Source of the DNA: Candidatus Levybacteria bacterium RIFCSPHIGHO2_01_FULL_41_15
GTDB lineage: Bacteria; Patescibacteriota; Microgenomatia; Levybacterales; UBA12049
Direction of reading: 5' to 3'
Assembly: GCA_001782165.1 (NCBI GenBank)
Contig: MFNV01000006.1
Span: 444-64,443, forward strand
DNA: 64,000 nt
Positions 6,773 through 51,040 of this stretch are shown one piece after another. Under the pieces are notes generated by a model, which saw only the letters and a list, made by a program, of their open reading frames with translations, had not been told where the DNA came from and did not search any database. Positions within the stretch are counted from its first letter, which is position 1; each line of letters opens with the position of its first letter. Both the position numbers and the translations under genes were made by a program.

Positions 6773-9376
<2,604 letters not shown>

Positions 9377-10261: not shown

Positions 10262-10348
10262 TGTTAATAGTATTAAATATTATGTACTAAGTATCAAGTA
10301 TATATTTGGTCAGCTGTTCAATGGTAAATCTGTCAATTTGTTAATTTG

Positions 10349-11500: not shown

Positions 11501-11505
11501 ATTCT

Positions 11506-12630
11506 TTACCGTTCTCCTATAAGTTTCCTATAAAGCTTTTCATAGTTTTCAACCATTTTCTCAGCACTAAACTCTTCCTCAATTCGCATTCTACAATTGT
11601 CTGAGATTTTTTGATACTCATTTGTGGAAAGACTGTTGATTTTTTTCATAGCCTCAGTAAGTCCATCAACTCCACCTATAGGATCTATAGTGTAACCTGT
11701 CAAACTATCTACTACTATTTCAGGGACACTTCCTCTTTTATAAGCAAGCACCGGCGTTCCACATGCCATAGATTCTGTCATTACTAATCCAAACGGTTCT
11801 TCCCAGTGAATGGGAAACAGAAGTGCTTTGGCATTTTGGTAGAGATTCGCTATCTCTTCTCTTTTTAATTTTTGTTCCGAAGATGGCTCACCCACAAACT
11901 TAATCTTTAAAGATAAATGTGGGGCAATAATTGTATCGTAAAATGCTCTGTCCTCAACATTCCCAACGATTCGTAATTCTTCCCCTAACCGTTCTGCGGC
12001 CATGATAGCATCTCGTACTCCTTTGGGATCCAAAAATTTCCCGCTTTTATCTTTTACCTTGCTCATACGCCCAACAAATAGAAAGTAGGATCTTTTTATA
12101 CTCGTTGCCTTGCTAAATAATGTTATATCAATGCCATTATAAATGACAACTGATGGAAGATTAAGTCGTTTTTGAGCACTTTTAGATATGCAAACAAGAT
12201 GAGTTTTTTTATAGGTATCCGAGAGCGCCATCACAAGTTCTTGCGTTACCTGAGCATGAATTGTAGTAACAACGGGTATTGTATAAGAGTGTGCTGCAAG
12301 GAGTGGTAAAAACTCGGGATACATATGATTGTGAATAATATCGAACTGATCTTGATGGATTACGGCTTCCATAATTTCGTGGGAAATGTACGCAGTCTCT
12401 GTATAAAACGGATTTTCGGAAGGGGGAAGAAAATTTAATCCTTTTTTAGAAATCCCAACTATTTCAATGCCTGGAATGTACGAGTCTGAGCTTGCAAACA
12501 CAGTCACCTTGTGCCCTTTTTTAAATAATCCAGTTGCCAAATCAACAATAATACGATTTCTGCTGACGGTAGTTGTGGGATTAAGAGAACGTCTTAACGG
12601 CGCCAACATTCCTATCCTGAGCTTAGTCAT
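11506..12630 (-). CDS. GT4-family glycosyltransferase
   Basis: WEEPFGLVMTESMACGTPVLAYKRGSVPEIV. Confidence 0.75.
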   Translation of the reverse strand: MTKLRIGMLAPLRRSLNPTTTVSRNRIIVDLATGLFKKGHKVTVFASSDSYIPGIEIVGISKKGLNFLPPSENPFYTETAYISHEIMEAVIHQDQFDIIHNHMYPEFLPLLAAHSYTIPVVTTIHAQVTQELVMALSDTYKKTHLVCISKSAQKRLNLPSVVIYNGIDITLFSKATSIKRSYFLFVGRMSKVKDKSGKFLDPKGVRDAIMAAERLGEELRIVGNVEDRAFYDTIIAPHLSLKIKFVGEPSSEQKLKREEIANLYQNAKALLFPIHWEEPFGLVMTESMACGTPVLAYKRGSVPEIVVDSLTGYTIDPIGGVDGLTEAMKKINSLSTNEYQKISDNCRMRIEEEFSAEKMVENYEKLYRKLIGER

Positions 12631-12633
12631 AGA

Positions 12634-13899
12634 TTAAGATCCATTTCTTGCAAAAAATTGATTTATTGATCCAATAATACCAGAAAGCTGAGGGCTGGTT
12701 CCTTTTACACGGGCTATATATTCTGAAGTAGAATAGCGGAATTGTTTATAAATTGCTTCAAACTGATCTGCAATCTTATCCCAAGTAAAACGTTCCCTTA
12801 CTGTATTGTAGGCTTCGTCTGCTATTTTTTTGCGGAGCGCATCATTTTCAAGAAGCATATTTATCGTTTCTGCAATCTGTTTGCTGTTTCTCGGCCGTAT
12901 AAAAAAACCATTCACACCGTTTTTAATAAGAGAAACGACTCCTCCCTTTCTGGTAGCTACAACGGGCGCATGAGCGGCCATAGCTTCAAGAATTGTCAAT
13001 CCGAGTGGCTCTTCCCATACACTTGAGGATATATACACATCTGCCCTCTCATAGAAAGCATGAAAGAATCGAAGGTTTGTTGGATTTATGTAACCCGCAA
13101 GCACAACATTTCTCAGCCGTCGTTTTTTGATTTCGTGTTCTAGATGTTTCCTTTCCGAACCATCTCCAACGATTAATACCGTTCCATTAATTGAGGCAGC
13201 TGCGCGGACAAGATAGATTACTCCTTTATTCTCTGTCAATCTCCCGGTAAAAAGAACCACTTTTTTATTAAAAAGATTGTATTTTTTATTTATGAAAGTT
13301 ATCTCTCCGGGATCTCTTTTGTAATTTGATAGATTTACACCCCCCATAATTACACTACTTTTCCGCCTCAAATCATCACCAAACATATCAAGGTACCAAC
13401 GTTTTGTAAAATCACTATTCGCAGTGATAAATCGTGCTACCCGATTCGCATCATTAATAAGTCCGATGAACCGATTATCTGAAGAGAGATAATTTAGATC
13501 GCTTCCATGAGTCGTAATAATAAATTTAATACCAAAAAGGATTTTGATAAGCCTTGCAATACCTGGTAAAAATGCCGTATGGAATACATGGATTATTTCC
13601 GGATCAAACTCAGAAACAGCATCGATTGTGGCCTTAAGATAGCTGGCGTAGATGTAACCAAGCTCTTTCCCATTCATATCTTCAAACCTCTTTGCACGTG
13701 GTAATTCTGGATGCCCAACGAATACGCCCATTTGCGGGGGTTCAACCACGTAGTGTTTTATGCCAGGAAGTTTTCTCTTGTCAGGAGCAATAATCGCCAC
13801 GGTGTGTCCCCTCTTTACAATTTCCCCAGTCAGTTCTCTTAAAAAAGCAGCGCTCCCATTACCCCACAATGGAAACATATATAAATAAAGTATTTTCAT
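12634..13899 (-). CDS. GT4-family glycosyltransferase
   Basis: WEEPLGLTILEAMAAHAPVVATRKGGVVSLIKNGVNGF. Confidence 0.75.
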   Translation of the reverse strand: MKILYLYMFPLWGNGSAAFLRELTGEIVKRGHTVAIIAPDKRKLPGIKHYVVEPPQMGVFVGHPELPRAKRFEDMNGKELGYIYASYLKATIDAVSEFDPEIIHVFHTAFLPGIARLIKILFGIKFIITTHGSDLNYLSSDNRFIGLINDANRVARFITANSDFTKRWYLDMFGDDLRRKSSVIMGGVNLSNYKRDPGEITFINKKYNLFNKKVVLFTGRLTENKGVIYLVRAAASINGTVLIVGDGSERKHLEHEIKKRRLRNVVLAGYINPTNLRFFHAFYERADVYISSSVWEEPLGLTILEAMAAHAPVVATRKGGVVSLIKNGVNGFFIRPRNSKQIAETINMLLENDALRKKIADEAYNTVRERFTWDKIADQFEAIYKQFRYSTSEYIARVKGTSPQLSGIIGSINQFFARNGS

Positions 13900-23737: not shown

Positions 23738-25456
23738 CTACATTTTTGTTGGGGATTCGATACCGAGGAGATAGAGGCCGGTTTTGAGGGTCTGACCGAC
23801 TCCTCGCGTGAGTTTTAATCTAAACTCTTCGTTTTCACTTTCCAGAATCTTATGTTTTTGATAAAAATTATTAAACGCCTGTGAAAGTTCAAAAAGATAA
23901 TTGCAGAGAAGATTTGGAGCAAAACTGTCTCCGGCCTCCTCTACAATTTCTGGGAAGTGAATCAGTAATCTTAAAACCAAGAGTTCTTCCTTTTCAAGTT
24001 TAATATTTTCTGAATTCTGAATTCTGAATTCTGAATTCCGAGCATTTGCGAGCACACTTTGCGTTCTCGCAAAAGTATATTGAATATACGGTCCTGAATT
24101 GCCCTCAAGATTGATCGACTCTTTGAAACTAAAGGTGATATCGGATTTGCGGGAAAATTTAAGCACAGAGTACTTTACAGCCCCTACAGCCACTTTTTCC
24201 AAGGTTTCCTCCTCCATTTGTTCGAAATTTTCTTTTAACCTTCTTTTCGTCTCATCCAAAAGCCACTCCCCCGAAATTATGTTTCCAAGGCGGGATGACA
24301 TTTTCGTATCTTTTAAACTCACAAAACCAAAAGAATAATGGAAAGTTTTTTTGGCAAGATCCGGAAAAACCTTATCAAGCGCTTGCAAAACTACTTTAAA
24401 GTAAGATACCTGTTCATTTGCGGTAATAATTATTGACTCGTCGTAGGGAAAATCGTCAAATTTTGCCGATGCCAAAGCCAAATCCTTGGCCTCATATGTT
24501 CCGTAACCATCGCTTGTTACAAAAACTCTAGTGTGCTTTCCGCGGAAAACCACAGCACCTTCATGTCTTTCAAAAATCCCATCTTTGATATGAGACAGAA
24601 CAATCTCCCTTCCAGGTTCTTCAACCTCGCTTTCAAAATAATATCTTTTGTATTTGGTTCCTAATCTTTTATAAATATCTTCAAAATGCTCAAGACTCCA
24701 CTTTCTCCCCTCTCCCCAAAGTTTGTTCAATCCTGGGTCTGATTTTTGATAAATTTTAAGATTTATTTCCCGAATTTCTTCCTGTGCTTTTTTATCTTCC
24801 TCGTACGCTTTTGCACCTGCCGCGTACGCTTCTCCCAAAAATTTTGCTCCTTTGTCTTTTGACTTTAAATTTTGAATTTTGAATTTTGACTTTTGAATTC
24901 CATAAATCGCTTTTGCAACATGCATTCCAACATCCCCTTGATAGTTGGCTCGAAAAACTTCTGCGCCTTGAAACTCCAAAAGCCTTGAAAAAGATTCCCC
25001 CAAAGCTATATTTCGAAGATGGCCTATGTGAAATTCCTTAAAGGGATTGGGGTCTGCAAACTCGAGCATTATTTTCTGCTTGCCCCGCGGAGCTTTCTTG
25101 ACCTTCGAAGTTTTAACGAAGGAGGTAGCGAAGTGGGGTTTCCCGTAATTTTCATCTGATGCTATTTGATGCAGTTTTTCTGTCAGATATTTCTTGGAAA
25201 GAAAAAAATTAAGAAATCCGGGCGGAGAAACTTCAATCTTCCCAACTTCGGGTACATTTTTTTGAAGCTCCTTTGAGAGGAAATTTCCAAATTCAATCGG
25301 GTTTTTATATTTATCCTTTACTTTGTGAAAAAAGGTAAGAGGAGCGTTCGTGGAATAATCTCCATATACTATATCAATCTGTACCTCCACTTCAAACTTC
25401 TCCTTTATGATCTTCTCAAGTTCTTTCCTAAGCGCTCTCTCAATCTTTCCCTTCAT
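23738..25456 (-). CDS. argS: Arginyl-tRNA synthetase, carrying in-frame repeat-derived insertions
   Basis: HIGH motif FHIGHLRNIALGE; class-I core and C-terminal anticodon-binding domain; 572 aa. Confidence 0.9.
   Translation of the reverse strand: MKGKIERALRKELEKIIKEKFEVEVQIDIVYGDYSTNAPLTFFHKVKDKYKNPIEFGNFLSKELQKNVPEVGKIEVSPPGFLNFFLSKKYLTEKLHQIASDENYGKPHFATSFVKTSKVKKAPRGKQKIMLEFADPNPFKEFHIGHLRNIALGESFSRLLEFQGAEVFRANYQGDVGMHVAKAIYGIQKSKFKIQNLKSKDKGAKFLGEAYAAGAKAYEEDKKAQEEIREINLKIYQKSDPGLNKLWGEGRKWSLEHFEDIYKRLGTKYKRYYFESEVEEPGREIVLSHIKDGIFERHEGAVVFRGKHTRVFVTSDGYGTYEAKDLALASAKFDDFPYDESIIITANEQVSYFKVVLQALDKVFPDLAKKTFHYSFGFVSLKDTKMSSRLGNIISGEWLLDETKRRLKENFEQMEEETLEKVAVGAVKYSVLKFSRKSDITFSFKESINLEGNSGPYIQYTFARTQSVLANARNSEFRIQNSENIKLEKEELLVLRLLIHFPEIVEEAGDSFAPNLLCNYLFELSQAFNNFYQKHKILESENEEFRLKLTRGVGQTLKTGLYLLGIESPTKM
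24012..24039. repeat. Tandem 7-mer (GAATTCT)x4 inside argS, encoding ...NSEFRIQNSEN...
   Basis: Read directly from the sequence. Confidence 0.7.
24861..24900. repeat. AAATTTTG/GAATTTTG-type low-complexity repeat inside argS (encodes QKSKFKIQNLKSK)
   Basis: gactttaaattttgaattttgaattttgacttttgaattc. Confidence 0.6.
25079..25145. repeat. RPE-like GC-rich palindromic element inserted in-frame in argS (encodes GKPHFATSFVKTSKVKKAPRGKQ); related copies at 32000..32038 (leuS) and 42420..42447 (intergenic)
   Basis: cttgccccgcggagc...ccttcgaagttttaacgaagg...gcgaagtgggg; internal perfect 6-bp stem CCTTCG/CGAAGG. Confidence 0.55.
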
Positions 25457-27719: not shown

Positions 27720-28945
27720 AATTTATTTTTAAACTTTAAAACAAGTGAGACAAGAATGAGATAATATCCTGCCGCAAACTGCCAAGGGAAATCTTCGATT
27801 TCCAGAGATCCCCCTAAATCCGAAAAGAGGGAGACAATTTTGTCGAAATAAAAAATTAGAGGAAAGGCAAGAAGAATCACCGCTTTACCTGCCAATTCCC
27901 AAAATATACCCAAGGATCCTCCCACTGCGCCGATGACCATAAGAATAGGGACAGTCCAGAGCACCAATGCATTTACAAAGACTGACCAAATCGAATAGGT
28001 TCCGAAATTTGCAATAAGAATGGGAAGAGTGGCGGCTTGGGCAGACAAAGTTATTATCAGATCTTCTCCTATTAAAGTTATGTTCAAAGCTTTTTTTATT
28101 GTGTCTGAGAAAAAGAAAAACGGTCTTATGGATAAAAGCCCAAAAGTTGCTGCGAAAGAAAGCTGAAAACCTATATCAAATATCGTCAATGGATTTATGA
28201 AAATCATTAAGTATCCCGCGACCATGAGGGCATAAAAAGAAAGTCTTTGTCTGCCCAAAATTTGAGCAGACAAAGCAAGTATTCCCATAATTGTCGCTCT
28301 TACTATTGATGCTTCAAACCCAGACAAAACTGCATAAAAGAGAACCCCCGAAACTGTAAGAAAAAGGGCAATCTGCCTCTTTAAGAAGAACGAGAATACT
28401 CCTCCTATAAACCCGCCGAAAAGTGTTATATTCATTCCCGAAGCCGCAATTACATGCAAGACTCCCGCAATTCTTAAATTGTCCAAAAATTCCGAAGACA
28501 TATTCCTCCTTATTCCAAAAGCAATGCCCAAAAGCAAGGACGAATAATCCGAAGGCAATGTTCTCTCAAATAGGTATATTAATTTTTGCCGCAATACTGA
28601 TATAAATTTAAAAATAGAATTCTCATCTTCTATCTTTTGTATTTTCGGAAAAGACAAAATAAAAATCTCATTTTTATTTAGCACTCCGACTTTTAATTTG
28701 CCAGAAACTCTTATTCGATCTTGATAATTAAATTCAGGATGAGGTGAAGTTATTATTAAAATTCTGTTCAAATCTAAATTAGCAGATACTATTTGCCGAC
28801 TGCCAGATATTTTGGGCTGTGATTTGATCTGGGTTACAAAATTAACTTCTTCTCCGTCCTTTAAATCTTGTCTATTTTGATACTCCAAAAATGCTCGGAT
28901 TCCAAGAACGAGAATAAGAACCAAAAAGACAGAGGCAATTCTCAT
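27716..28945 (-). CDS. comEC: ComEC/Rec2 DNA-uptake channel, membrane (competence) domain
   Basis: N-terminal OB/DUF4131-like region plus polytopic membrane domain typical of ComEC. Confidence 0.7.
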   Translation of the reverse strand: MRIASVFLVLILVLGIRAFLEYQNRQDLKDGEEVNFVTQIKSQPKISGSRQIVSANLDLNRILIITSPHPEFNYQDRIRVSGKLKVGVLNKNEIFILSFPKIQKIEDENSIFKFISVLRQKLIYLFERTLPSDYSSLLLGIAFGIRRNMSSEFLDNLRIAGVLHVIAASGMNITLFGGFIGGVFSFFLKRQIALFLTVSGVLFYAVLSGFEASIVRATIMGILALSAQILGRQRLSFYALMVAGYLMIFINPLTIFDIGFQLSFAATFGLLSIRPFFFFSDTIKKALNITLIGEDLIITLSAQAATLPILIANFGTYSIWSVFVNALVLWTVPILMVIGAVGGSLGIFWELAGKAVILLAFPLIFYFDKIVSLFSDLGGSLEIEDFPWQFAAGYYLILVSLVLKFKNKL

Positions 28946-29574
28946 TAATAAATCGTAATTTTATCTTTTATTTTATCGAAGACCGAGCTGCCCACTATTT
29001 TTTTTGAAAGCAGATCATCTATGGTCTGGTAAGGCCTCCCTTGTATTATTTTTGATGCCGTAGCAGGCCCTATTCCAGACAAAGTATCTAATTCTTTATC
29101 AGATGCAGTATTTATGTTTATTAAGCCTCCTGATTGAATACTGGCTCCTCCCTGAACTTGGGAAGAGGTAAATGTTTCCCCTTCAAACGGTATATAAATT
29201 TTTATTCCGTCCGTAACTTTTAAAGCAAGATTTAGATTCTTGGCTACCCAATTTCTATCTGCACCTGAAGAAAGACCTCTGGCTGCTACCAGTACGTCTT
29301 TTACCCTTGATTCCTTGGGCAAATTATAAACTCCGGGAGAAACAACCGCTCCTTCTATATCTACTACGATCTGGCTATCTTTTTTATTACCTGAATTCAC
29401 TTCCGATGATTGGCTTGCTTTCTCAAATGCAATATCATTTGAGTTTGATGATGAAACTAATAACCCTATCACACCATATCCTAAAAGTATCACTCCCAAA
29501 AAACCCAAAATTAGCGGCAAGAGGTTCTGTCGGATAAGAGGAACTAAAGAGTCACTAAGGTTTTTATAATCCAT
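28945..29574 (-). CDS. comEA: ComEA DNA-binding competence protein (SLBB + tandem helix-hairpin-helix)
   Basis: ININTASDKELDTLSGIGPATASKIIQGRPYQTIDDL HhH motif. Confidence 0.75.
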   Translation of the reverse strand: MDYKNLSDSLVPLIRQNLLPLILGFLGVILLGYGVIGLLVSSSNSNDIAFEKASQSSEVNSGNKKDSQIVVDIEGAVVSPGVYNLPKESRVKDVLVAARGLSSGADRNWVAKNLNLALKVTDGIKIYIPFEGETFTSSQVQGGASIQSGGLININTASDKELDTLSGIGPATASKIIQGRPYQTIDDLLSKKIVGSSVFDKIKDKITIY

Positions 29575-32125
29575 TGTCTAAAACGAAGTTTATTACCTTC
29601 CCTTTGATATAAACAATGTCTTTGATCTTCCTTTTGTTTAAGTATTTTTGCACCCTTTGACTTTTCCTGGCAGTTTCCTCTATTTTCTGCTGATCATTAA
29701 TATGGGCTGAGTCAACCCTTAAAACATCCCGGGTTTTACCATTTATCTGAACGGCGATAGCAAAAATTTTTTCTGCCAAATATTCTTCTTTAAAACTGGG
29801 CCATGAGGCTTTATGAATAGAATCTTGGAAATTTAAAGCATGCCATAACTCCTCTGAAAAGTGCGGAGCAAAAGGACAAATCAAAAGAAGAAAAGTTTTA
29901 ACTTCATCTTTTGATATATTTTGTTCCTTTGACAAAAAATTATAATATTCCATAAGCGAAGCTATCGCAGTATTGTATTTAAGATTATCGATATCTTCTG
30001 TGACTTTTTTTATTGTTCTATGAAGCTTTGAGAGAGACTTGACTGAAACACTTTTATCTGAAATTTTGGTTAGACAAAGAACCCAAGCTCTTTTTAAAAA
30101 TCTGAAACACCCCTCAACGCTTTCCTCACTCCAGAGAACAGTTTGGTCAAAAGGTCCCATGAACATCTCGTAAATTCTCAAGGTATCTGCCCCAAATTTA
30201 TTGATTATTTCATCAGGATTAATGATATTTCCAAAGGACTTACTCATTTTTCTGCCGTCTCTCCCTAAGACAATCCCGTGTGAGCGTCTCTTTGCATATG
30301 GCTCAGGATTCGGCACTACACCAATGTCAAATAAAAATTTGTAGACAAACCGCGAATACAAAAGATGCAAGGTGGTATGTTCAAATCCGCCTTGATAGAT
30401 ATCAACCGGCATCCAATAATCCATTTTTTTCTTATCGGCAAGAGCCGAATCATTGCCAGGATCTAGATAGCGTAGAAAATACCAGTTTGAACCAGCCCAG
30501 TTTGGCATAGTATCTGTTTCGCGTCGTGCTTTTCCGCCACATTCTGGGCATTTTACCTTGAGCCAATCTTTGGCAAGCGCCAGGGGAGATTCTCCCGTTC
30601 CTGTTGGCTCATATTCTTTAAGGAACGGAAGCTCAACCGGCAGATCTTTTTCAGGAACCGAAACAGCTCCACATTTTTTGCAGTGTACTATTGGAATTGG
30701 CTCTCCCCAATAGTGCTGTCTTGAGAAAACCCAATCGCGGAGATGATAAACTGTAACTCTCTTACCCCAACCTTTTTCTTCAATATAATCCATTATCTTT
30801 TTTGTAGCCTCATGAATATCCAATCCATTGAGAAAATCCGAATTGATCATTGTTCCCTCTTCTTCTTGGACCTGAGAAGCTTTTGTGATTGGCGATCTAT
30901 CGCCATCTTTGCCAACAACCACACGGATTATTGGTAACTTAAAACTTCTAGCGAATTCGAAATCGCGAATATCATGACCAGGCACGCCAACAACTGCACC
31001 CGTCCCAACATTACCTAGAACAAAGTCACTCACCCATATTGGCATCTTTCTTTTGTTCAAGTCGTTAATCGCGTACGATCCCGTAAAAACTCCGGTTTTC
31101 TTCCTGCCTTCTGCGATTCTTTCAACCTCTGATTTTCTTACTGATGCATTAATATATTCTTTGACTACTTTTTTATGTTTTTCTTTTGTTATCTTAAGAA
31201 TAAGCGGGTGTTCAGGACCAACTACTATGAAAGTTGCGCCAAAATTAGTATCGGGCCTTGTCGTGAAGCACTCGATCTGATATTTACTATTTTCTATTTG
31301 ATATTTAATGTTGATTCCTTCTTTTTTTCCAATCCAATTTATCTGCTGTATGGCTATTTTTTGAGAGTAATCAACCAGTTTTAAATCTTCTAAAAGTCTA
31401 TCGGCGTATTTTGTAATCTTAAGAAGCCATTGTTTTTGCATTCGCTTTTGAGTTTTGGTGCCACAGCGTTCATGTGTTCCGTCTAATAAGACTTCTTCAT
31501 CCGCCAAATTAGTCTTACACGATGGACACCAGTTTACTGGAACATCTGCCTGATAAGTCAATCCCTTTTCAAAAAATTTTAAGAAGATCCACTGAGTCCA
31601 TTTGTAGTACTTAGGATCGGTCGTGTTTATTTCGCGGCTCCAGTCAAACGAAAGACCTAGGGATTTACACTGTTTCTTAAATCTTTCAATGTTTTTTGGG
31701 ACAATAGTAGAAGGGTGGACACGCATCTTCAAAGCGTAGTTTTCAGCAGGCAAACCAAAAGCATCCCAGCCAATTGGATAAAGCACATTCTTTCCTTCCA
31801 TTCTTTTCTTTCGGGAATACGCATCCATTGCAGACCATGAGCGGATATGTCCTACATGAAGACCTGAGCCTGAAGGATAGGGAAATTCGATCAAAACATA
31901 AAATTTCTGCCGCTTATCAAAATCTATGGCCCTATAAAGTCCCTCCTCCTCCCACCTCTTCTGCCATTTTGGCTCTATTAAACTTGGGTTATACTTCTGC
32001 TTGCCCCGCGAAGCCGCGTTTGACGCGGCGAAGTGGGGCCATTTGGGTTCAATTTCCGAAGGATTATATTTTGGAATCATGATTTTTACCTTTTCTTTTT
32101 TGTTTTTTGATTTTAAATTAGCCAT
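29564..32125 (-). CDS. leuS: Leucyl-tRNA synthetase, with N-terminal in-frame insertion/duplication
   Basis: HIGH region YPSGSGLHVGH; KMSKS; class-Ia editing domain; 853 aa. Confidence 0.9.
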   Translation of the reverse strand: MANLKSKNKKEKVKIMIPKYNPSEIEPKWPHFAASNAASRGKQKYNPSLIEPKWQKRWEEEGLYRAIDFDKRQKFYVLIEFPYPSGSGLHVGHIRSWSAMDAYSRKKRMEGKNVLYPIGWDAFGLPAENYALKMRVHPSTIVPKNIERFKKQCKSLGLSFDWSREINTTDPKYYKWTQWIFLKFFEKGLTYQADVPVNWCPSCKTNLADEEVLLDGTHERCGTKTQKRMQKQWLLKITKYADRLLEDLKLVDYSQKIAIQQINWIGKKEGINIKYQIENSKYQIECFTTRPDTNFGATFIVVGPEHPLILKITKEKHKKVVKEYINASVRKSEVERIAEGRKKTGVFTGSYAINDLNKRKMPIWVSDFVLGNVGTGAVVGVPGHDIRDFEFARSFKLPIIRVVVGKDGDRSPITKASQVQEEEGTMINSDFLNGLDIHEATKKIMDYIEEKGWGKRVTVYHLRDWVFSRQHYWGEPIPIVHCKKCGAVSVPEKDLPVELPFLKEYEPTGTGESPLALAKDWLKVKCPECGGKARRETDTMPNWAGSNWYFLRYLDPGNDSALADKKKMDYWMPVDIYQGGFEHTTLHLLYSRFVYKFLFDIGVVPNPEPYAKRRSHGIVLGRDGRKMSKSFGNIINPDEIINKFGADTLRIYEMFMGPFDQTVLWSEESVEGCFRFLKRAWVLCLTKISDKSVSVKSLSKLHRTIKKVTEDIDNLKYNTAIASLMEYYNFLSKEQNISKDEVKTFLLLICPFAPHFSEELWHALNFQDSIHKASWPSFKEEYLAEKIFAIAVQINGKTRDVLRVDSAHINDQQKIEETARKSQRVQKYLNKRKIKDIVYIKGKVINFVLDNGL
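32000..32038. repeat. RPE-like palindromic element inserted in-frame in leuS (encodes PHFAASNAASRGKQ)
   Basis: cttgccccgcgaagccgcgtttgacgcggcgaagtgggg; perfect stem GCCGCG/CGCGGC. Confidence 0.55.
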
Positions 32126-32153
32126 AAATGGAGCATAGCACAGAGAAGGGTAT

Positions 32154-33074
32154 TTATCTAGACACTCTATCGGCCTGTGGTAGTTGCCTCTGTTCTAAAA
32201 GATTTCTAGCATTTACCGGGGCAACAGATCTAAATATTGGCTTCTCCGGAGATTTTATTCTTATTTTTACCCTTCCTGGACCATGATCATCAAGAAGAAC
32301 CTGATATCCACACAATTCATACATGCTAAAGTTTCTGCACTCAGTAGCCCATCCTATAACTCCATTAACAGGTCTGTTAAAAAGTCTCTCTCGCTTGTCA
32401 TCAAAAACAATCCTAAGGGGAATTTGCCCATCACGCAAGATTATCAATAATCTTCCGGGTTCTTCTGATGGATCCCTCTTGGTTTCCGCCAAAAGGGCGA
32501 AAAGACCATCGACAACAACTGCTGAGCCATCCGGTTGAAGCTCCAATTCTGTCTCCGTCATATCGATTAACTCCTCGGCCCTTTCTGTAACCCGGCGCTT
32601 CCGCCTTTTTCCCCGGACTCTCTTTCCTAAATGGCTTTCGTAAATAATTCCGCTTTCTTTTCCTCTATCCCTTGCTCTTAAACTATTTAGATTAAACTTG
32701 CGGAAGATAAATGGTTGTCTGTCGAATGAACGAAGTTCTACTGTTATAGATGAGGAATTTTGAGGCTTTTTAATAATTAAACTATATTGACCAAATGTAA
32801 TACTGCTAATTTCCTCTGGTCGCAAGTTAAGATTTTGTGCGCTACTAATAGCAACCTGTCCCTGTCTTCCTACCACAACTGTGGGATGCTCTCTTCTTCT
32901 TAGAACTGTCAATTTACTTCTTGGTAGTTGTCCATCACTTAAATCACTCACAGCCCTAAGACAGAATTGTCCCCCATTAACAATCACAGCTTCTCCATCT
33001 ATAAAGAGTTCAACTAAACCAGGGGAATATCCTTCCAACCGGTCTTTTTTCTCAACTGCTGTTTCTAGTTTCAT
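32154..33074 (-). CDS. Hypothetical Arg-rich protein with apparent internal two-fold duplication
   Basis: 306-aa ORF; basic patch KRVRGKRRKRRVTERAEEL; no recognisable motif. Confidence 0.4.
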   Translation of the reverse strand: MKLETAVEKKDRLEGYSPGLVELFIDGEAVIVNGGQFCLRAVSDLSDGQLPRSKLTVLRRREHPTVVVGRQGQVAISSAQNLNLRPEEISSITFGQYSLIIKKPQNSSSITVELRSFDRQPFIFRKFNLNSLRARDRGKESGIIYESHLGKRVRGKRRKRRVTERAEELIDMTETELELQPDGSAVVVDGLFALLAETKRDPSEEPGRLLIILRDGQIPLRIVFDDKRERLFNRPVNGVIGWATECRNFSMYELCGYQVLLDDHGPGRVKIRIKSPEKPIFRSVAPVNARNLLEQRQLPQADRVSR

Positions 33075-35969: not shown

Positions 35970-38900
35970 ATGGACTTTCTGAGTTTATTCAAATCCTTCC
36001 TAATTGAATCGGGTAAAGTATCTAAGGTTACTCTAAAAAATTATCTTTCTGATATAAGATTTTTCATATTTTGGTATGAGAGGTTTTACTCTCAGCCATT
36101 CTCTCCAACATCCATAGATTACTCTGTTGTACAAGCTTTTAAAAATTATCACTTCGACAGGATCGCCTTCTCGTCTCTTGATCGCAAACTTTCTGCTTTA
36201 AGAAAATTCTTTAGTTTTCTCAAAGAGAAAGGATTCATTGCTTCTGTTCCTTTTCAGGAGAAATCGAAAGAAGCAGAAGATAAGTTTTCACTTAAAGAAT
36301 TTAAGAATTTTCTATTCAGGCAAAACATTTCATCAGTTTCTTCCAAGAATTATCTGATTGACATAACTCAATTCCTAAACTGGGCGGATCAAGTAATCAA
36401 ACCCAGCGAACATTGGATAGTTTCTCAAAGAGATCTTTATTCAAGGATAGATAATGAACTCGTCAATGAGTATAAGAGAAGATTAATCGATCAGGGATTT
36501 TCTCCCCTTTCTGTAAACAGAAAGCTTTCTTCAATAAGAAAGCTCATTTTCTGGGCAATTAAAGAAGGGAAAATCAAAAAAAATAGATTTGATTTCATAA
36601 AAGAAAAAGGGCTTTTCCCCCTCAGCACAAAAGGGTCTACGTTGACCATTCAAGGAGGTTTTGCAGATTTTCTGACCCCTAAGATAGAAGAAAAGGCTAT
36701 GACCTATTCAAAGATTCCCCCAATCAGGGTAGCTCAGAAAATATTAGTTCTTTTTTCCTCAATCTATGATGATCTAATCATAGATCCCATCGCAGAATTC
36801 ATTAGCTTTTTGAACTTACTTCTTTTTAGGTTTGATAGAAAATCCATTTTCAAGTCAGATATCAAGAAAATCCCGCGAATTCAAGATCCAATAAAAATTT
36901 CAAATGTTGGCAAAAACTTTTATGCTCCGCTAAATATTTCTACAAAAGGGATGTCTTGGATCCGAAAAATATCGTATTCCATTCGATTTATACGACCAAA
37001 GTGGTATTTAAGATATCATAACTATGCAGTTGTCCATTACATACACTTCTCCATCCTTGTCATATTCATGACTGTTTTGGGTTTTGGGATTTATCAAAAG
37101 TTTTTCCTGCCAACAACAAATGTCCTTGGAGAGTCAATATTTTCCCTTTCCAGAATTCTTACGGTAAAACAGAGACTTACAGATTCTTTAGGAAATCCCA
37201 TCACCGAGAAAACTCTCATAAGATTCGCTATCTATGGGGATCCAGAAGCCTCAGGCTCAGCAATGCTTTGGGAAGATGTCAAAACAGTAGAACCCGATGA
37301 AAACGGCTTTTTCCAAACAAGCCTGGGGGAAAAAACTCCTATTCCCTCGAGCATCTTTTTCACTTATCCCTCCCTCTGGCTTGGAACAAGCATAGGCCAA
37401 ACATCCGAACTTAGACCCCGACAGCAGCTGACAAATGTTTCCCTAGCAACAAGCGCCCAGACTCTGAAGGGTCTGGGAATTAACTCACCCCTAAATTATA
37501 AAAATGTAATCCTGTCTCTTGATTCTTCAGGCAACCTGTCTCTTGGGGGACCATCTCATATTTTCCAGGCAATAAACGGGCAATTTGTTCTATCCGGAAA
37601 TATACTAACTCTTTCGACAATTTCGGGAACAAATACAAATATTGAAATTGTGCCTGATGGTTTGGGAAAAGTTGACATCCAAAAACCCATTCAAAATACC
37701 TCAAACAATAACAACATCCCAACTGCAATCGGAAGCGTTGAAATAGACGATCTTGTAAGTATACTGGCCACCTCAAGTGGTCAATCGGCCCTTACTATCA
37801 ATCAAAACGACTTAGGACCCATTATTAGCGCCTCTGCAAGCGGGATTGCCAAATTTACCATAGACAGCTTCGGGAATATGACTCTGTCAGGAGACATAAG
37901 TCTTTCGGGAAATAATGTAAATGTTTTTGCCACATCCCCTCAGTCAACCTTATCTATCGGCTCGGAAGACGGAGGCAATCTTATTCTCCAGCCTGTTTCA
38001 ACCGGTGAAATCCAATTTTTCTCCCCCTTAAATTTTTTATCTTCCGAGGGTACGCTTAAGCTTTCAGGGAATTTGATACTCTCAGGAACATCTTCACCCT
38101 CCTCCTCCTTTAGACTCTATGTGGAGGATTCTCAACCAAGTACCGCGGCTGCCCAAATATTCAATACAAGCGCAGGCTCAAAGGCAAGCGGACTTTTAAT
38201 AAAACTTGGAAACACTTCCGGCACAACAAATACAGATAATAAGTGGGTTACCTTTGAGCAGAGCGGGATCGGGATTGTGGGGATGATAAAAGGAAACGGA
38301 GAAAAAGGCGTAACTTTTCAGGGAAACGGGGTTTCTGATTTTGCTGAATATCTTAAAAAGGATGAGAATGAAAACATTCCCTTTGGCTCTCTGGTCTGCA
38401 TTGATGAAAAAGGTATGGTTACAGGATGTTCGTATAATAATCGGAATATTGTAGGGGTGGCGTCTGAAAATCCAACTTTCTTAGGAGGAGAGAACCTTGG
38501 GAATAAATCGATCCCGGTGGGCCTTGTGGGACAAGTTCCTGTTTTTGTATCAAACATAAACGGAGACATAAAACCAGGAGATCCTCTCACTTCATCTTTT
38601 ATAAAAGGTCTGGCCGCAAAGGCAAAAGACGAAGGAAGAATAGTAGGAAGAGCCCTTGAGAGCTTTGACTCCCTAAACTGTATCAATGAATCTTCGAATT
38701 TCGGTCTTGTTGAGAAAAGGATCTGCAAAGGAAAAATCCAGACTCTCTTGAACGTTTCGCATTATGAACCTTCTCCCTTAGACCAAGCCCAAAAAATCAA
38801 GGAACTTGTTCTTCAGGAAGTAGACAACGGTATCTTTGAGATAAAAGATTCACTGGGAATAGCAGTTGAAGAGATTCAGGCTTTTAACAAAAGTATAATC

Positions 38901-40088
38901 GGCACACTTGAAGCCGGAATAATCAATGCACGAAGGATTTCAGTTGAAACCCTAAATCTAAACGCACTATTTATAGAAGGGGAAAGTCTAAAAGACTATA
39001 TTGCTCAGATTATTCAAAACCAGCCTCAGATAAAATCCCCCATTGCAGAAATTGATGAGATAAAGACAAATATAATAAGCCCCCTTTCGCAGGAAAAAGA
39101 CATAAAGATAAAAATCGGAGAAACATCAAATCTTGCAGTTGAAAATCTTAAAGGACAAACAGTTTTTAATGTAGATAGTGAAGGAAACGCAACTTTGGCA
39201 GGAGAACTTTCTACCTCCTCTTTAAAAACAAATGAAATACAATCTGATAATGCCACTGTTAGTGGGGTTCTTCATGCAAAAAAAATCGTAACAGATGAGA
39301 TAGAAAATCAGAGTGAGAACAACTCTGTCTTTGCGAATATAGCATCATTTTCCTCTCAGCTTGTCTATGTTCAAAATCTAAAAGCGCAGACGGCTAATTT
39401 TACGGATGGACTCATAGCCTTAGGGCCTTCCTCTCTGATTGATACTGCAATATCGGGTCAGCTTTCGATTAATTCAAATTTAATTTTGGCAGAAAATTCT
39501 ATAAATGTCCTTGGTTCTGATCTTGAGATCCAGTCTGTAAGACAAGGCGGAGTTTCTCTTATGGGAGGTTTTGTTTATATAGATACAGATGGAAACCTAA
39601 AAGTCGGGGGAAATGCAGAGTTTGCAAAAGACATAACTGTAAAAGGAATAATATTTGCAAATATTATATCCCCTATTCCTGACAGTGATTTGATAGTTGA
39701 CATAAACGCAGAAAATAAATCTTTTATAATTAAAAACAAAGACAATCCTGTTGTTTCCGTAACGGGAGATGGAAATCTGACGGCATCGGGAAGTGGCACA
39801 TTTGGCAAACTGAATCTTTCTCTGATAAAACCTGCTCTTGCAGTTTCAGAAACCGAAGCAGTAGCAACCGGAGCTGCAGGAGTAGCCACAATTAGCGCTT
39901 ATCAAAAAGAACTGACAATCAAAAACAGTCTTATTACAAAAGACTCTCTGATATATGTAACTCCAAGAACTGATACAAAAAATATTGTAATTTACCTTTT
40001 AAGACAAGTGCCTGGAATATCATTTACTGTGGGAGTGAATACTCCCTCAGGATACAATATTCCGTTTAACTTTCTTATAATAAATTAG
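35970..40088 (+). CDS. Giant (1372 aa) membrane-anchored protein: three tandem phage-integrase N-terminal SAM-like (core-binding) domains, TM helices, huge extracellular Gly/Ser/Thr-rich fibre-like repeat domain
   Basis: Repeats VTLKNYLSDIRFFIFWYE, SSKNYLIDITQFLNWADQ, SVNRKLSSIRKLIFWAIKEG; TM HYIHFSILVIFMTVLGFGIY; remainder paralogous to the extracellular domain of the 1..1850 gene. Confidence 0.65.
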   Translation: MDFLSLFKSFLIESGKVSKVTLKNYLSDIRFFIFWYERFYSQPFSPTSIDYSVVQAFKNYHFDRIAFSSLDRKLSALRKFFSFLKEKGFIASVPFQEKSKEAEDKFSLKEFKNFLFRQNISSVSSKNYLIDITQFLNWADQVIKPSEHWIVSQRDLYSRIDNELVNEYKRRLIDQGFSPLSVNRKLSSIRKLIFWAIKEGKIKKNRFDFIKEKGLFPLSTKGSTLTIQGGFADFLTPKIEEKAMTYSKIPPIRVAQKILVLFSSIYDDLIIDPIAEFISFLNLLLFRFDRKSIFKSDIKKIPRIQDPIKISNVGKNFYAPLNISTKGMSWIRKISYSIRFIRPKWYLRYHNYAVVHYIHFSILVIFMTVLGFGIYQKFFLPTTNVLGESIFSLSRILTVKQRLTDSLGNPITEKTLIRFAIYGDPEASGSAMLWEDVKTVEPDENGFFQTSLGEKTPIPSSIFFTYPSLWLGTSIGQTSELRPRQQLTNVSLATSAQTLKGLGINSPLNYKNVILSLDSSGNLSLGGPSHIFQAINGQFVLSGNILTLSTISGTNTNIEIVPDGLGKVDIQKPIQNTSNNNNIPTAIGSVEIDDLVSILATSSGQSALTINQNDLGPIISASASGIAKFTIDSFGNMTLSGDISLSGNNVNVFATSPQSTLSIGSEDGGNLILQPVSTGEIQFFSPLNFLSSEGTLKLSGNLILSGTSSPSSSFRLYVEDSQPSTAAAQIFNTSAGSKASGLLIKLGNTSGTTNTDNKWVTFEQSGIGIVGMIKGNGEKGVTFQGNGVSDFAEYLKKDENENIPFGSLVCIDEKGMVTGCSYNNRNIVGVASENPTFLGGENLGNKSIPVGLVGQVPVFVSNINGDIKPGDPLTSSFIKGLAAKAKDEGRIVGRALESFDSLNCINESSNFGLVEKRICKGKIQTLLNVSHYEPSPLDQAQKIKELVLQEVDNGIFEIKDSLGIAVEEIQAFNKSIIGTLEAGIINARRISVETLNLNALFIEGESLKDYIAQIIQNQPQIKSPIAEIDEIKTNIISPLSQEKDIKIKIGETSNLAVENLKGQTVFNVDSEGNATLAGELSTSSLKTNEIQSDNATVSGVLHAKKIVTDEIENQSENNSVFANIASFSSQLVYVQNLKAQTANFTDGLIALGPSSLIDTAISGQLSINSNLILAENSINVLGSDLEIQSVRQGGVSLMGGFVYIDTDGNLKVGGNAEFAKDITVKGIIFANIISPIPDSDLIVDINAENKSFIIKNKDNPVVSVTGDGNLTASGSGTFGKLNLSLIKPALAVSETEAVATGAAGVATISAYQKELTIKNSLITKDSLIYVTPRTDTKNIVIYLLRQVPGISFTVGVNTPSGYNIPFNFLIIN

Positions 40089-47359: not shown

Positions 47360-49558
47360 TTACCCAACCGGCTTAGTATATTTTTCCCTTGAAACCCTTA
47401 CCACCTTTTCCCTGTTTTGAGTAACGCTCTTAGGAAGAGGAAGAGTCTGACACAGAAACGGCGACTGGGTAATTCCGTCAACGGCAAGTTTTATAACTGC
47501 TTGGAAATTCCCCAACAAAAGTAAATCTTCTGCCTTAAATCTCTCCCCAAATTCTTTCCCCACATAAGCTGAGTCTTGTGCGCCAATGAGAAACGACATC
47601 ATAGTTCCTACATTTCCGAAGATTGCCGCTCTTACATCTTCGGGAACTTGTGATATATATTGATTCGCAAGTATAAGGTTAAGTCGGTATTTTCGGGCTT
47701 CCGATAAAATCTTTATAAAACTTGTTGTTGCAAAATTCTGAAACTCATCAACATAAAGATAAAAATCCCTGCGTTCTGCCTCTGGCATCGAAACTCTGTT
47801 CATCGCCGCAAGCTGAATCTTGGTAATAGCCATTGCTCCCAAAAGCGCTGCATTATCCTCACCTATTCTTCCTTGCGACAGATTCAAAATTACAATTTTT
47901 CCTTCATTCATAATCTTTTCAAAATCAACTGTTGATTTGGGATTTTTAATAATATTTCGCATAAGGTGGGACGAAGTAAACTGTCCTACTTTGTTTAAGA
48001 TCGGTGAGATAGATTCACTCTTAAGCCTCGGCTGCATTTGCTCAAACTCATTAATCCAATAGTTTCTAAGAACCCTGTCTGTCATCTTCTCAACCACTCT
48101 GTGTCTGAAGTTATCATCCGTTAAGATATCCTGTACCATAAGAAGTGTCGCATCAGGCAGACTGATTACCGATAAAAGAGCGTTTCGCAGGATATATTCA
48201 AGTCTTGGTCCCCAAGTATGACCGTATAATTTATGAAAAATTGCAACAATCCCTGAGACCACGAGTTCTTTTTGTTCAGGGTTTTCAACAGACAATGGGT
48301 TTAGCGAAAAAGCATGTATCTTGTCCGAAGGATCAAGATAAACTACATCATTTACCCGGAAAGACGGGATGTAATTTAATAATATTTCGCAAAGATCACC
48401 GTGAGGATCGATTACGCAAATCCCTTTGCGGTTTCTGAAATCACTTATTGCCATATTTGCAATAAGTGTTGATTTTCCCGTCCCTGTTTTTCCGATGAGA
48501 TAAAAATGTTTTCGCCGGTCAGCAGATTTTATTCCGAAATTTGTAACTCTGTTTTTAAACTCGGTTTGCGCAAAAAAATTAGTTTCTGTTTTTTCCTGCG
48601 AAGTTAAATATTCGGCAACCGGAAGGTTTTCGGGAGGCTCGGAAAGTATAGTTTTATGCCATGAGATATTGTGAAGTGTTGCGAATTTGGATGTCGGAAA
48701 ATGGAAAAAACTTGCAATCTCCTCAACGTTTAATATCTGATTTGCCGGAACAAACCTTTTGTTTCTTTTAACAAGAGCGCTCATCATTCTTTTTTTCTGC
48801 CAAAGATAAGTCCGGCGAAGTTGAAAACTGTTACCGGAGGGGTTATTAAAAGATGAGAAACTATTTGCAATTTCATACAGGATCTGATGACTTCTCTCCC
48901 GATCTTGCGAAGAAACAGCAATTCTTATTGCCGTTTTGAAACCGTTGAGTTTTATCTTCTCAGAAATTACCTTGGCATAGGGGTTTTGTTGAACTACTCC
49001 TGCGGAATCCTTTTTCTTAGTATTAATTGTTCTCTCTCCTGTCCTTTGCCATCCCGAACCGATTGGTATTAGCAAAACCTGTATCCAGATTTTGTCCTCT
49101 TTTTTTGCTTTTGACAGAACCGAAACAAGAGAAGACATGGGATCAACATCCTTAAAATCGCGAAAAGTCCGAAGTGGGTAAAGATATCCGGACGATATTT
49201 TCATCTGACCAAAGGTCAAATTATTTCTGTTCGAAAGAATTTCAGAAAGAGGATCCCCGCGGGTCTTTAGAAAAAGAGCTTTAGGATACTGGGAAACAAG
49301 CTGGGATTCTATAAAAGTCGTTAGAGTTTGAGGGACTGATATATAAAAATGGATAGTTTGATCTATTACTCCAATCTCCAATGTAATGGGGATTGCAAAT
49401 GAAACAAGATTTAGAACTCTTTTCTTAAGAGAAACAAGACTCGAGAGGAACTGAACCATCGCCTCCGGACTTTCTTCCCCTGTCCTTGAAGTTTTAACCT
49501 CAAGAAGAATTCTGTCGGATTTATTTTCCATAGTCTTATTATACGACATATAAGTCAC
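47360..49558 (-). CDS. Type-IV-secretion coupling-protein-like P-loop ATPase (TraG/TraD/VirD4 family-like), no N-terminal TM
   Basis: Walker A FYLIGKTGTGKST followed by CVIDPHGDL; Walker B-like YLYVDEFQNF; 732 aa. Confidence 0.55.
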   Translation of the reverse strand: MTYMSYNKTMENKSDRILLEVKTSRTGEESPEAMVQFLSSLVSLKKRVLNLVSFAIPITLEIGVIDQTIHFYISVPQTLTTFIESQLVSQYPKALFLKTRGDPLSEILSNRNNLTFGQMKISSGYLYPLRTFRDFKDVDPMSSLVSVLSKAKKEDKIWIQVLLIPIGSGWQRTGERTINTKKKDSAGVVQQNPYAKVISEKIKLNGFKTAIRIAVSSQDRERSHQILYEIANSFSSFNNPSGNSFQLRRTYLWQKKRMMSALVKRNKRFVPANQILNVEEIASFFHFPTSKFATLHNISWHKTILSEPPENLPVAEYLTSQEKTETNFFAQTEFKNRVTNFGIKSADRRKHFYLIGKTGTGKSTLIANMAISDFRNRKGICVIDPHGDLCEILLNYIPSFRVNDVVYLDPSDKIHAFSLNPLSVENPEQKELVVSGIVAIFHKLYGHTWGPRLEYILRNALLSVISLPDATLLMVQDILTDDNFRHRVVEKMTDRVLRNYWINEFEQMQPRLKSESISPILNKVGQFTSSHLMRNIIKNPKSTVDFEKIMNEGKIVILNLSQGRIGEDNAALLGAMAITKIQLAAMNRVSMPEAERRDFYLYVDEFQNFATTSFIKILSEARKYRLNLILANQYISQVPEDVRAAIFGNVGTMMSFLIGAQDSAYVGKEFGERFKAEDLLLLGNFQAVIKLAVDGITQSPFLCQTLPLPKSVTQNREKVVRVSREKYTKPVG

Positions 49559-49958: not shown

Positions 49959-50023
49959 CTTGACAACCGAATATAGCAATCGTTCTAGCCTTCGCGCAAG
50001 CGAGGAGACAAAGGAGGACTCAA

Positions 50024-50266
50024 ATGGGGAGCCTAATCGAGTTCTACTCAAGGCCCCTTGAGTGGGTTGCAAAAGTACCCCACTCAATTCACAGTCGTCC
50101 TAGCGACGATAGCGGTTGGGGGTCAGCTTGTTATGCTAGCCCTGCTGATCAAGGCCGCCATCGACTGGATCTAGCCTCCGCGGAAGCGCGTGAAGAGATC
50201 CCTGAAAGGAGGCGATGTGAAATCGTTGATCGACGCTTACCTTCTGTTTGGCAGGCTTCTGTTTAA
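50024..50266 (+). CDS. Island ORF 2: 80-aa hydrophilic protein (SD AAAGGAGG 9 nt upstream); an alternative overlapping SD+GTG ORF at 50217..50294 (25 aa)
   Basis: SD then ATG; coding status of the two overlapping frames is unresolved. Confidence 0.3.
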   Translation: MGSLIEFYSRPLEWVAKVPHSIHSRPSDDSGWGSACYASPADQGRHRLDLASAEAREEIPERRRCEIVDRRLPSVWQASV

Positions 50267-50401
50267 ACGCAGATGGCCAACCAGGCGAAGGTAAATCCAC
50301 CCAGCGCTTGTGTTCGCTCAAGTCAAGCTTCAGAAATCGCGTCTAACGCGACAAAGAGGCTGACAAGATGCGCGCACAAGCTAGCTTCAAAAGGAGGTTC
50401 C

Positions 50402-50560
50402 GTGGCTCGAAGCGAGAGAAAGAAGCGCAAACAACAGAGTAACGGAAGCGGCAAGCTGAAGCGCAGGCCAGAACCACCACCCGATGAAAAGCCCCCAGAC
50501 GAGGAGAAATCCCCTCTTTCTAGCTCAAGTAGCACAAGTAAAGGAGGCAGTCGGATGTGA
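50402..50560 (+). CDS. Island ORF 3: 52-aa basic/acidic low-complexity peptide (SD AAGGAGG at 50391 then GTG; the longer ATG form starts at 50273)
   Basis: VARSERKKRKQQSNGSGKLKRRPEPPPDEKPPDEEKSPLSSSSSTSKGGSRM; stop TGA overlaps the next GTG (GTGA). Confidence 0.35.
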   Translation: MARSERKKRKQQSNGSGKLKRRPEPPPDEKPPDEEKSPLSSSSSTSKGGSRM

Positions 50561-50688
50561 ACGGCAAGAAACGTCCTCCCAAACAACCGAATAGCGGGAA
50601 GCACCGCCATCGGCATAGGAACGGCAATAACCTTCGATTTCGCGGACCCCGAGGGATAATGACGGCAAGAAAGGAAGCGAGAAGATGA
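50557..50688 (+). CDS. Island ORF 4: 43-aa highly basic peptide
   Basis: SD AAGGAGG at 50541; VNGKKRPPKQPNSGKHRHRHRNGNNLRFRGPRGIMTARKEARR; stop overlaps the next ATG (ATGA). Confidence 0.35.
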   Translation: MNGKKRPPKQPNSGKHRHRHRNGNNLRFRGPRGIMTARKEARR

Positions 50689-51039: not shown

Positions 51040-51040
51040 A

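Follow-up and report, generated by a model that had tools for sequence, protein, structure and literature searches.

A translated GC-rich hairpin between two diverged N-terminal motifs of leucyl-tRNA synthetase in a Candidatus Levybacteria genome

Introduction

To our knowledge, an in-frame palindromic lifestyle within essential genes has so far mainly been tied to the Rickettsia palindromic elements (RPEs), reportedly described by Ogata et al. in 2000. RPEs are short palindromic repeats of a reduced genome that lie in frame in essential genes; the host translates them and tolerates the peptides that they encode at the protein surface or in extensions, and we know of none that comes with a duplicated host motif. 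They are also mentioned in PMC1779305. Here, we describe a 42-nt GC-rich palindrome in leuS, the gene of leucyl-tRNA synthetase (LeuRS), on a 64-kb stretch of DNA (hereafter the window; contig MFNV01000006.1) from Candidatus Levybacteria, which belong to the Candidate Phyla Radiation (CPR)/Patescibacteria. The palindrome separates two diverged copies of the N-terminal motif of the enzyme. The explanation that we favour, and to which we give about an even chance, combines an RPE-like in-frame element with a scar of recombination or repair, through which a leuS 5′ motif with its own evolutionary history came to be stacked.

We liken the element to RPEs because all its copies have lengths that are multiples of three, are open and share one orientation and frame. 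The hairpins, which were confirmed by folding, lie in frame in three unrelated genes, namely leuS and argS of the window and a dehydrogenase gene (gdh) of another organism. They differ from RPEs in length (42-63 nt compared with roughly 100-150 nt), in being strongly GC-rich in a genome of 38% GC, and in their CPR/Patescibacteria host (Candidatus Levybacteria instead of Rickettsia); a sequence relationship is not expected.

Repetitive extragenic palindromic (REP) sequences and bacterial interspersed mosaic elements (BIMEs) are mobilised by REP-associated tyrosine transposases (RAYTs, IS200/IS605-like; PMC3733652). The leuS element resembles them in size (20-40 nt for a REP), in being an imperfect GC-rich palindrome and in having dispersed copies with conserved ends. 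REPs, however, lie outside genes and have a GTAG or CGTC tag at one end, whereas the leuS element is intragenic and in frame and its ends are untagged; in addition, its copy number looks low (two copies in 64 kb and one in 14 kb), and all copies seen are intragenic. Unlike a transposon or a miniature inverted-repeat transposable element with a target-site duplication, the copies lack one characteristic length of flanking repeat. The element itself is palindromic.

Yeast mitochondria have GC clusters and 'byp' elements, and phage T4 has an insert in gene 60. They share with the leuS locus a GC-rich hairpin in AT-rich coding DNA and identical codons before the insert and further downstream. The ribosome jumps over byp elements and the gene 60 insert, which usually disrupt the frame or bear a stop; the 75-nt gap in leuS, by contrast, is open, in frame and free of stops, every copy is a multiple of 3, and nothing suggests hopping. 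Integrative elements, finally, may bring along a substitute for the end of the gene that they target, such as the tRNA 3′ end within attP. The leuS locus likewise combines a displaced, decaying copy with a working replacement copy in direct orientation, the replacement being diverged and functionally conserved, but only 42 nt separate the copies, there is neither an integrase nor an element body, and the other hairpin members carry no host segment.

A further comparison is offered by homology-facilitated illegitimate recombination and transformation-generated merodiploidy, in which foreign DNA can enter through a homologous junction at one end and an illegitimate one at the other and may duplicate part of a gene locally (PMC3240628 and PMC3784515). 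Such cases have been demonstrated by experiment in Acinetobacter, Streptococcus and E. coli, mostly with segments of far greater length, whereas the leuS case is deduced from junctions and divergence. Our literature search returned no description of in-frame palindromic elements in CPR bacteria.

Results

Layout of the leuS 5′ end

An earlier note, made from the letters of the window, had placed two copies of the LeuS start motif around a palindrome. We confirmed its coordinates, its reading frame and the paired copies on the minus strand, where the gene is laid out as follows.

29564..32125, minus strand: leuS coding sequence (CDS) from the list of open reading frames (ORFs), 853 aa/codons, holding the extension, copy A, the hairpin element and copy B
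32072..32125, minus strand: Lys-rich N-terminal extension MANLKSKNKKEKVKIMIP, which reads ATG (32125), MANLKSKNKKEKVKIM, IP
32039..32071, minus strand: motif copy A, KYNPSEIEPKW, joined to the native-looking extension and promoter and severed from QKRW by the element
31997..32038, minus strand: 42-nt GC-rich palindromic element CCCCACTTCGCCGCGTCAAACGCGGCTTCGCGGGGCAAGCAG, with the in-frame translation PHFAASNAASRGKQ
31964..31996, minus strand: motif copy B, KYNPSLIEPKW, which runs on into QKRWEEEGLY

The N-terminus thus has the order MANLKSKNKKEKVKIMIP-KYNPSEIEPKW-PHFAASNAASRGKQ-KYNPSLIEPKW-QKRWEEEGLY. A profile search identified the product as a bacterial leucine--tRNA ligase (TIGR00396 leuS_bact, 962.6 bits with a cut-off of 548.4); positions 1-842 of this profile align to LeuS residues 45-849, starting at Tyr45 of copy B. 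Across the six frames of the window, the KYNPxxIExKW-type motif occurs twice, as copies A and B and nowhere else. Extensions similar to the one in front of copy A are also carried by relatives (e.g., MPKTKRENQIP-KYNP and MAKTENKTAVS-KYNP).

The imperfect palindrome itself spans 32003..32039, within and next to the 42-nt element. The predicted RNA fold has an outer stem, then a 3x3 UUC/UUC internal loop and an inner stem of 7 bp, and is capped by a CAA loop; its free energy of -24.3 kcal/mol was matched by 1 of 200 shuffles. Outside an island at 51-53.6 kb, the element is the sole stretch of at least 72% GC in the window, which has 38% GC. Its ends read CCCCAC... and ...GGCAAGCAG, its lone CGTC sits in the apical region and not at a terminus, and the terminal CAG may be host-derived. 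In the AlphaFold2 model of the first 220 residues, the element peptide (LeuS residues 28-42) has a predicted local distance difference test (pLDDT) score below 50 and is predicted to be disordered.

A scan of Rfam 15 gave matches at chance level (E of at least 1.8, far under the gathering scores), none of them on the hairpin itself, and neither strand of 31900..32350 contained a terminator-like site, the element being followed by AAGUAUAAC with no U-tract. In a set of 5.8 billion proteins, the five concatenated open-frame peptides of the element yielded 47 word candidates, none with E ≤10, and a padded alignment of the element peptide yielded no candidate. Scans of viral contigs returned nothing relevant: L082 was a chance match in GC-rich DNA, and a second pattern went unmatched.

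The additional 75 nt are not an artefact

Twelve contigs encode the exact 853-aa LeuS product; they come from several independent ENA and JGI assemblies, and the leuS 5′ region is base-for-base identical in four of these contigs. The same leuS DNA is found, apart from base 32039, in NCBI MFOS01000008.1. The 90% cluster of LeuS holds two NCBI proteins, OGH23356.1 and OGH34981.1, from metagenome-assembled genomes (MAGs) of Candidatus Levybacteria from the Rifle aquifer, both annotated from an ATT within copy A, as MEPKW/CPHFAAS.... When the 90% clusters of LeuS and of six neighbouring proteins were searched for closer strains, this strain alone was found.

The closest species-level genomes (L001-L003) and the 8 homologous N-termini that we inspected have a single motif followed by QKxW, a similar Lys-rich extension in front of it and no hairpin. 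A second copy of the motif was present in 0 of 80 related leuS loci and in 0 of 120 homologous N-termini, and the pair in the window exceeds what chance would give. Because every relative examined has one motif and no hairpin, 75 nt of the window leuS are extra, which bears out the earlier note's claim of an insertion. The same note had proposed a comparison of related leuS 5′ regions, in which a duplication lacking the element would have spoken against it; such a duplication was not seen among the 80 loci.

One base of this region differs between strains.

32039, minus strand: base that varies between strains; the mRNA strand has G in the window strain but T in both L087 and MFOS01000008.1

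The change from G to T turns TGG into TGT and thus Trp into Cys in copy A, and it also affects the closing G-C pair of the hairpin. It is the sole mismatch in 22,562 and 22,490 aligned bases in the comparisons of the window with these two assemblies, and both alleles occur in several assemblies. Relaxed selection could explain the difference, as could a mutation hotspot at the hairpin or sequencing that errs systematically close to a GC-rich inverted repeat.

GC-rich hairpins are prone to error in short-read data, and this single nucleotide polymorphism (SNP) sits at the base of the hairpin. Nevertheless, the identical sequence was recovered on the 12 contigs from different samples and by different assemblers, the two NCBI MAGs included. 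Copies A and B also differ too much for the collapse or expansion of a repeat. We rejected an assembly or sequencing artefact as the source of the 75 extra nt; its probability is close to nil.

The hairpin belongs to a dispersed family of in-frame elements

A structural pattern scan of the metagenome collection detected one further copy of the element, in L081 (also in L091-L093), that is identical to the leuS copy at 35 of 37 positions, with both differences in loops. Its orientation and reading frame match those of the leuS copy, and it lies in frame within a Glu/Leu/Phe/Val dehydrogenase gene (gdh) of another organism, in the context GGAKGGIIW-PHSAASDAASRGK-PDKSNS. Aligned with this protein, the Thermus dehydrogenase is gapped around the insert, first by 7 residues and then by 4. 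A signature scan across all retrieved sequences added a copy in argS of the window.

25076..25138, minus strand: argS element, 63 nt, second family member, in frame within the argS CDS 23738..25456, peptide PHFATSFVKTSKVKKAPRGKQ

The ends of the argS copy are those of the leuS copy, with the 11-nt CCCCACTTCGC at one end and the 14-nt CGCGGGGCAAGCAG at the other. For CGCGGGGCAAGCAG, the 3′ end of the element, two matches were found compared with 0.14 expected by chance. The interior hairpin of the argS copy differs, being AT-richer (CCTCCTTCG..CGAAGG), and resembles a subfamily found in L089; judged from its sequence, the argS copy may be a nested or hybrid element. It folds at -17.8 kcal/mol with the same outer architecture as in leuS, and E. 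coli ArgRS shows a 15-residue gap in the alignment where the insert sits.

With lengths of 42 nt (leuS), 63 nt (argS) and 39-42 nt (gdh), all copies are multiples of 3 in one orientation and frame, and the ORFs are intact. The flanking repeats vary: argS has at most AAA, gdh has none, leuS has the 33 diverged nucleotides, and L089 has longer segments that include an ATG. A related subfamily beginning with CCCTCCTTCGCC... is frequent in L089, again in frame within leuS. The sequences that bear the family derive from the same Rifle aquifer datasets. The hairpin is therefore a member of a small dispersed family of GC-rich elements, and the earlier view of the palindrome as an inserted element gains from its copies in argS and in the gdh of another organism.

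Several observations on sequences related to this family stand apart. Three stretches of L089 (1..160, 10174..13251 and 6387..7481) are of note. This genome has a tandem array of CCCTCCTTCGC-type units. Its 1025-aa LeuS contains at least two more in-frame GC-rich inserts (PFRQAQGKP and PPFAKAPTVAEALADKSVGRQ) as well as an internal NUDIX Pfam match, and 2.5 kb upstream there is a gene for a reverse transcriptase, next to a fragment of a TatD gene. The 946-bp scaffold L090 is 100% identical to the window argS over 734 nt and then switches abruptly to a diverged argS 3′ end; its positions 768..946 carry another in-frame GC-rich palindrome (AACCACCCCCGGGGTGGACGG, peptide VSIGNHPRGGREG). We did not use L090 as evidence for a natural argS mosaic, as both ends of the scaffold diverge abruptly and an assembly chimera is possible.

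Stacked motifs recur in two other LeuS lineages

We searched 1.84 billion representative proteins with a profile of the element peptide and its LeuS flanks, keeping 30 positions, and obtained two matches, P0125 and P0126. P0125, which is known as a protein only and shares its sequencing run with the window organism, reads EYKHSDIEAKW-PHSAKASRGKQ-DYNHVAIEAKW-PHSAKASRGKQ-DYDHKVAEQKW-QKVW and then continues as LeuS, so that three motifs alternate with two occurrences of PHSAKASRGKQ. P0126, a 58-codon ORF in L089, overlaps the leuS ATG as well as the stop codon of the NUDIX gene upstream. The L089 locus has the order ATG-T-KYNPQEIEAKW, element, ATG-R-KYNPKEIEPRW, element, stop/ATG-K-KYNPQEIEKKW-QKKW, that is, three leuS 5′ ends in tandem.

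In all three lineages (the window, P0125 and L089), the element directly follows the Trp codon of every upstream copy and never follows the last copy. The link between duplication and element drawn in the earlier note thus extends to two other LeuS lineages, in which a post-Trp element is likewise accompanied by extra motifs. The left junction is constant after the Trp, and the right junction varies, with K-Y in the window, D-Y in P0125 and ATG plus a few upstream bases in L089. One fixed and one variable junction together with diverged copies are what would be expected from recombination or repair at the element, and not from staggered cuts by a transposase.

The fixed left junction after TGG in three LeuS lineages and the stacks of two to three units also fit a self-compensating cassette, a mobile unit made up of the hairpin and a replacement leuS N-terminal motif (75 nt here) that inserts after the Trp codon. 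The downstream copy is always intact and diverged, as would be the case for a travelling motif selected as the working N-terminus, and the junctions are in register in the window and in P0125. However, the argS and gdh copies carry no host segment, the extent of the carried segment varies (starting one codon before Tyr or, in L089, with ATG and upstream bases), we identified neither a recombinase nor any other machinery, and there are three cases only, found with a LeuS-biased query. We regard a cassette of this type as quite unlikely. Its specific form, in which a site-specific mini-element, with the hairpin as its visible end, would home in on the codon after the Trp of the universally conserved LeuRS motif and the cassette would spread among co-occurring CPR bacteria, successive hits leaving stacks of displaced leuS 5′ ends, appears similarly improbable.

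The same arrangement could be read as a functional RNA device, in which the hairpin and the matched KW codons control leuS translation through pausing, attenuation or a programmed bypass from AAA-UGG to AAA-UGG. The hairpin is stable and lies about 85-125 nt into the ORF, identical AAA TGG codons precede the element and close copy B, and both differences from the L081 copy fall in loops. Yet the reading frame runs through the element unbroken, with no stop after the supposed take-off site, and the element has no U-tract, terminator-like site or Rfam family. The same element also occurs at unrelated positions inside argS and gdh, and the upstream copies in L089 are in another frame that ends at a stop overlapping the leuS ATG. 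A regulatory device of this kind is therefore hardly probable.

Divergence of copies A and B

The earlier note had put the divergence of the two copies at about 9 of 33 nt; our recount gave 11 of 33. Nine of these differences are synonymous and lie in 7 codons (e.g., Ser as TCG or AGT), and the remaining two cause a single residue change from Glu in copy A to Leu in copy B, so that 10 of 11 residues match. When 11 random substitutions were placed in 33 nt in a simulation, a change of at most one residue was obtained in 0 of 200,000 trials. A second simulation, in which B was kept constant and A evolved neutrally, gave an expectation of 5-8 changes, and at most one change was seen in 0 of 20,000 trials. 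Judged from these codons, both copies were selected as LeuRS N-termini throughout essentially all of their divergence.

Copies A and B are identical at 22 of 33 positions, and their mean identities to 64 orthologues are 21.0 and 20.1 of 33, respectively. The best single distant orthologues match A at 29 and B at 26 positions, both above the identity between A and B. L001 matches A at 25 and B at 23 of 33 positions, which gives no verdict on which copy is native. Because the divergence between A and B is nearly all synonymous and as large as that between unrelated orthologues, the second copy is not a duplicate that drifted in place. Over their full length, the nearest leuS orthologues are 67-72% identical, and 50-56% of the codons for identical residues differ, amounting to synonymous saturation; at this distance, the event cannot be dated. 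An adenine-specific mutation, as caused by diversity-generating retroelements, was considered and rejected, A being present at 3 of the 11 differing positions in copy A and at 4 of 11 in copy B.

According to the earlier note, the repeats could be an old target-site duplication or a repair scar. In the first of these, the 33-nt repeats would stem from staggered cuts and would have diverged since, and direct repeats do flank the element immediately. A length of 33 nt, however, far exceeds that usual for target-site duplications. Furthermore, the argS and gdh members lack such a repeat, its length differs between the LeuS cases, and the nearly all-synonymous divergence, of the size seen between orthologues, is unlike the drift of a duplicate, while the element itself is still identical at 35 of 37 positions to a copy in another organism. 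We therefore consider a target-site duplication very unlikely and regard the repair scar as the better half of that claim.

A further possibility is that the duplication came first: an old in-place tandem copy of the motif of 11-12 codons would have arisen, and a site-specific element would later have entered the redundant upstream copy after the Trp. Insertions into the working copy would have been lost, and selection would have kept both amino-acid sequences. The arrangement is indeed tandem and in register, the element always follows TGG in the LeuS cases, and the distance to the nearest relatives, with saturated synonymous sites, leaves enough time for the divergence. This order of events nevertheless requires purifying selection on a redundant upstream copy, since neutrality predicts 5-8 changes where one was observed, and the Trp-to-Cys polymorphism suggests that copy A is unconstrained now. 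Moreover, a duplicated motif without an element is absent from the 80 loci and the 8 inspected N-termini, and in L089 the motif is kept in upstream copies that lie outside LeuS in a separate overlapping upstream ORF. We judge this alternative to be unlikely, if still worth considering.

Working copy and translation start

Copy B is most likely the working N-terminal motif of LeuRS. All homologues align to copy B and not to copy A, and AlphaFold2 predicts the canonical helix at residues 47-61 and assigns copy A a pLDDT of about 58-67; this support from AlphaFold2 is weak because the input alignment had already placed the homologues on copy B. Copy A is probably displaced and now redundant. Because the sole SNP in 22.5 kb turns its otherwise invariant Trp into Cys, the data suggest that copy A is unconstrained today.

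Between 32078, after Met16 (32080), and 31964, the frame contains no ATG, GTG or TTG. Because there is no in-frame start in between, any LeuS with an intact motif includes copy A and the element. The translation start is most likely ATG 32125, as far as the sequence can tell; the alternative is ATG 32080 (Met16), which has AAGG in front. Upstream of the gene, we noted one additional feature.

32132..32137, minus strand: -10-like hexamer TATGCT, 6 nt before ATG 32125, inferred from conservation

The surrounding block TGCTATRCTCC(A/T)T(T/A)TT-ATG (window 32126..32140) is common to L001 and L002, with the same spacing despite saturated synonymous sites, which suggests that the leuS mRNA is leaderless or near-leaderless in these bacteria. 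A generic sigma-70 scan upstream of leuS gave no full consensus promoter. Because there is no start codon between Met16 and the end of copy B and the spacing of the -10-like box is conserved, the start lies upstream of both copies. The ambiguity of the start noted earlier applies to the annotation, with NCBI starting at the ATT in copy A.

Discussion

In the explanation that we favour, an RPE-like element joined to a recombination or repair scar, the element would be selfish or neutral DNA that persists as a translated, short, disordered and Ala/Ser-rich peptide, presumably because its translation is harmless in linkers and extensions. Copies A and B would have evolved apart as working LeuS N-termini and would later have been stacked at the element. 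A diverged leuS 5′ segment would have been taken up, with one junction homologous and the other illegitimate beside the element, and this uptake would have restored the intact KW-QKxW helix that was presumably split by the insertion after the Trp. Since the KW-QxxW helix would be interrupted by anything inserted between Trp and Gln, the alleles seen would be limited to those with an intact motif downstream. The ribosome would now start at ATG 32125 (or 32080) and read on across both copies and the element between them. Copy B and QKRW would form the canonical N-terminal strand and helix of LeuRS, and copy A and the element would make up a floppy N-terminal extension under relaxed constraint.

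An uptake route is plausible because competence genes (comEA-like and comEC) adjoin leuS and because such mechanisms, namely homology-facilitated illegitimate recombination and transformation-generated merodiploids, are documented (PMC3240628 and PMC3784515). The comEA-like gene (SLBB/HHH_3) is at 28945..29574 of the window and overlaps the leuS stop, and comEC (Competence, PF03772) comes next (L083 5552..7410).

Several points weigh against this explanation. The divergence test rests on 11 codons, and the search profile that retrieved P0125 and P0126 was biased towards LeuS contexts. The harm of a post-Trp insertion in a single-copy gene is an assumption. Neither a donor lineage nor a close relative with the site unoccupied turned up, the nearest orthologues being those with 67-72% identity, and because the element family is resident, as the argS copy demonstrates, the element need not have come with foreign DNA. 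In both the window and P0125, the downstream copy starts precisely one codon ahead of Tyr, and such an in-register tandem favours an in-place duplication or a cassette; on timing alone, an old in-place duplication may still be compatible with the data.

Two other features of the neighbourhood were noted. A GC-rich island at about 50000..53700 of the window (56% GC over 50-52 kb compared with 38% elsewhere), with ORFs that have no Pfam matches, adjoins a TraG/TrwB/HerA-like coupling ATPase (47360..49558) and may be foreign or mobile DNA. At 35970..40088, 4 kb from leuS, the window encodes a 1372-aa protein with two N-terminal Phage_int_SAM_1 domains and a faint Peptidase_G2 match, with no recombinase catalytic domain on record.

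If the explanation that we favour is correct, CPR/Patescibacteria own a class of very short GC-rich palindromes that lie in frame in leuS, argS and gdh. Such elements inflate and distort protein sequences and mislead start annotation, as in the NCBI LeuS entries that start at the ATT in copy A. The case is open to testing on existing metagenomes. If the cassette were the true explanation, selfish DNA would have a new means of settling in an essential gene while leaving its function intact. If the favoured explanation holds, the stacked and diverged leuS 5′ ends in three lineages would suggest that essential genes of these small genomes are repaired or overwritten by DNA of related organisms, and they would represent a direct footprint of recombination in an uncultured group.

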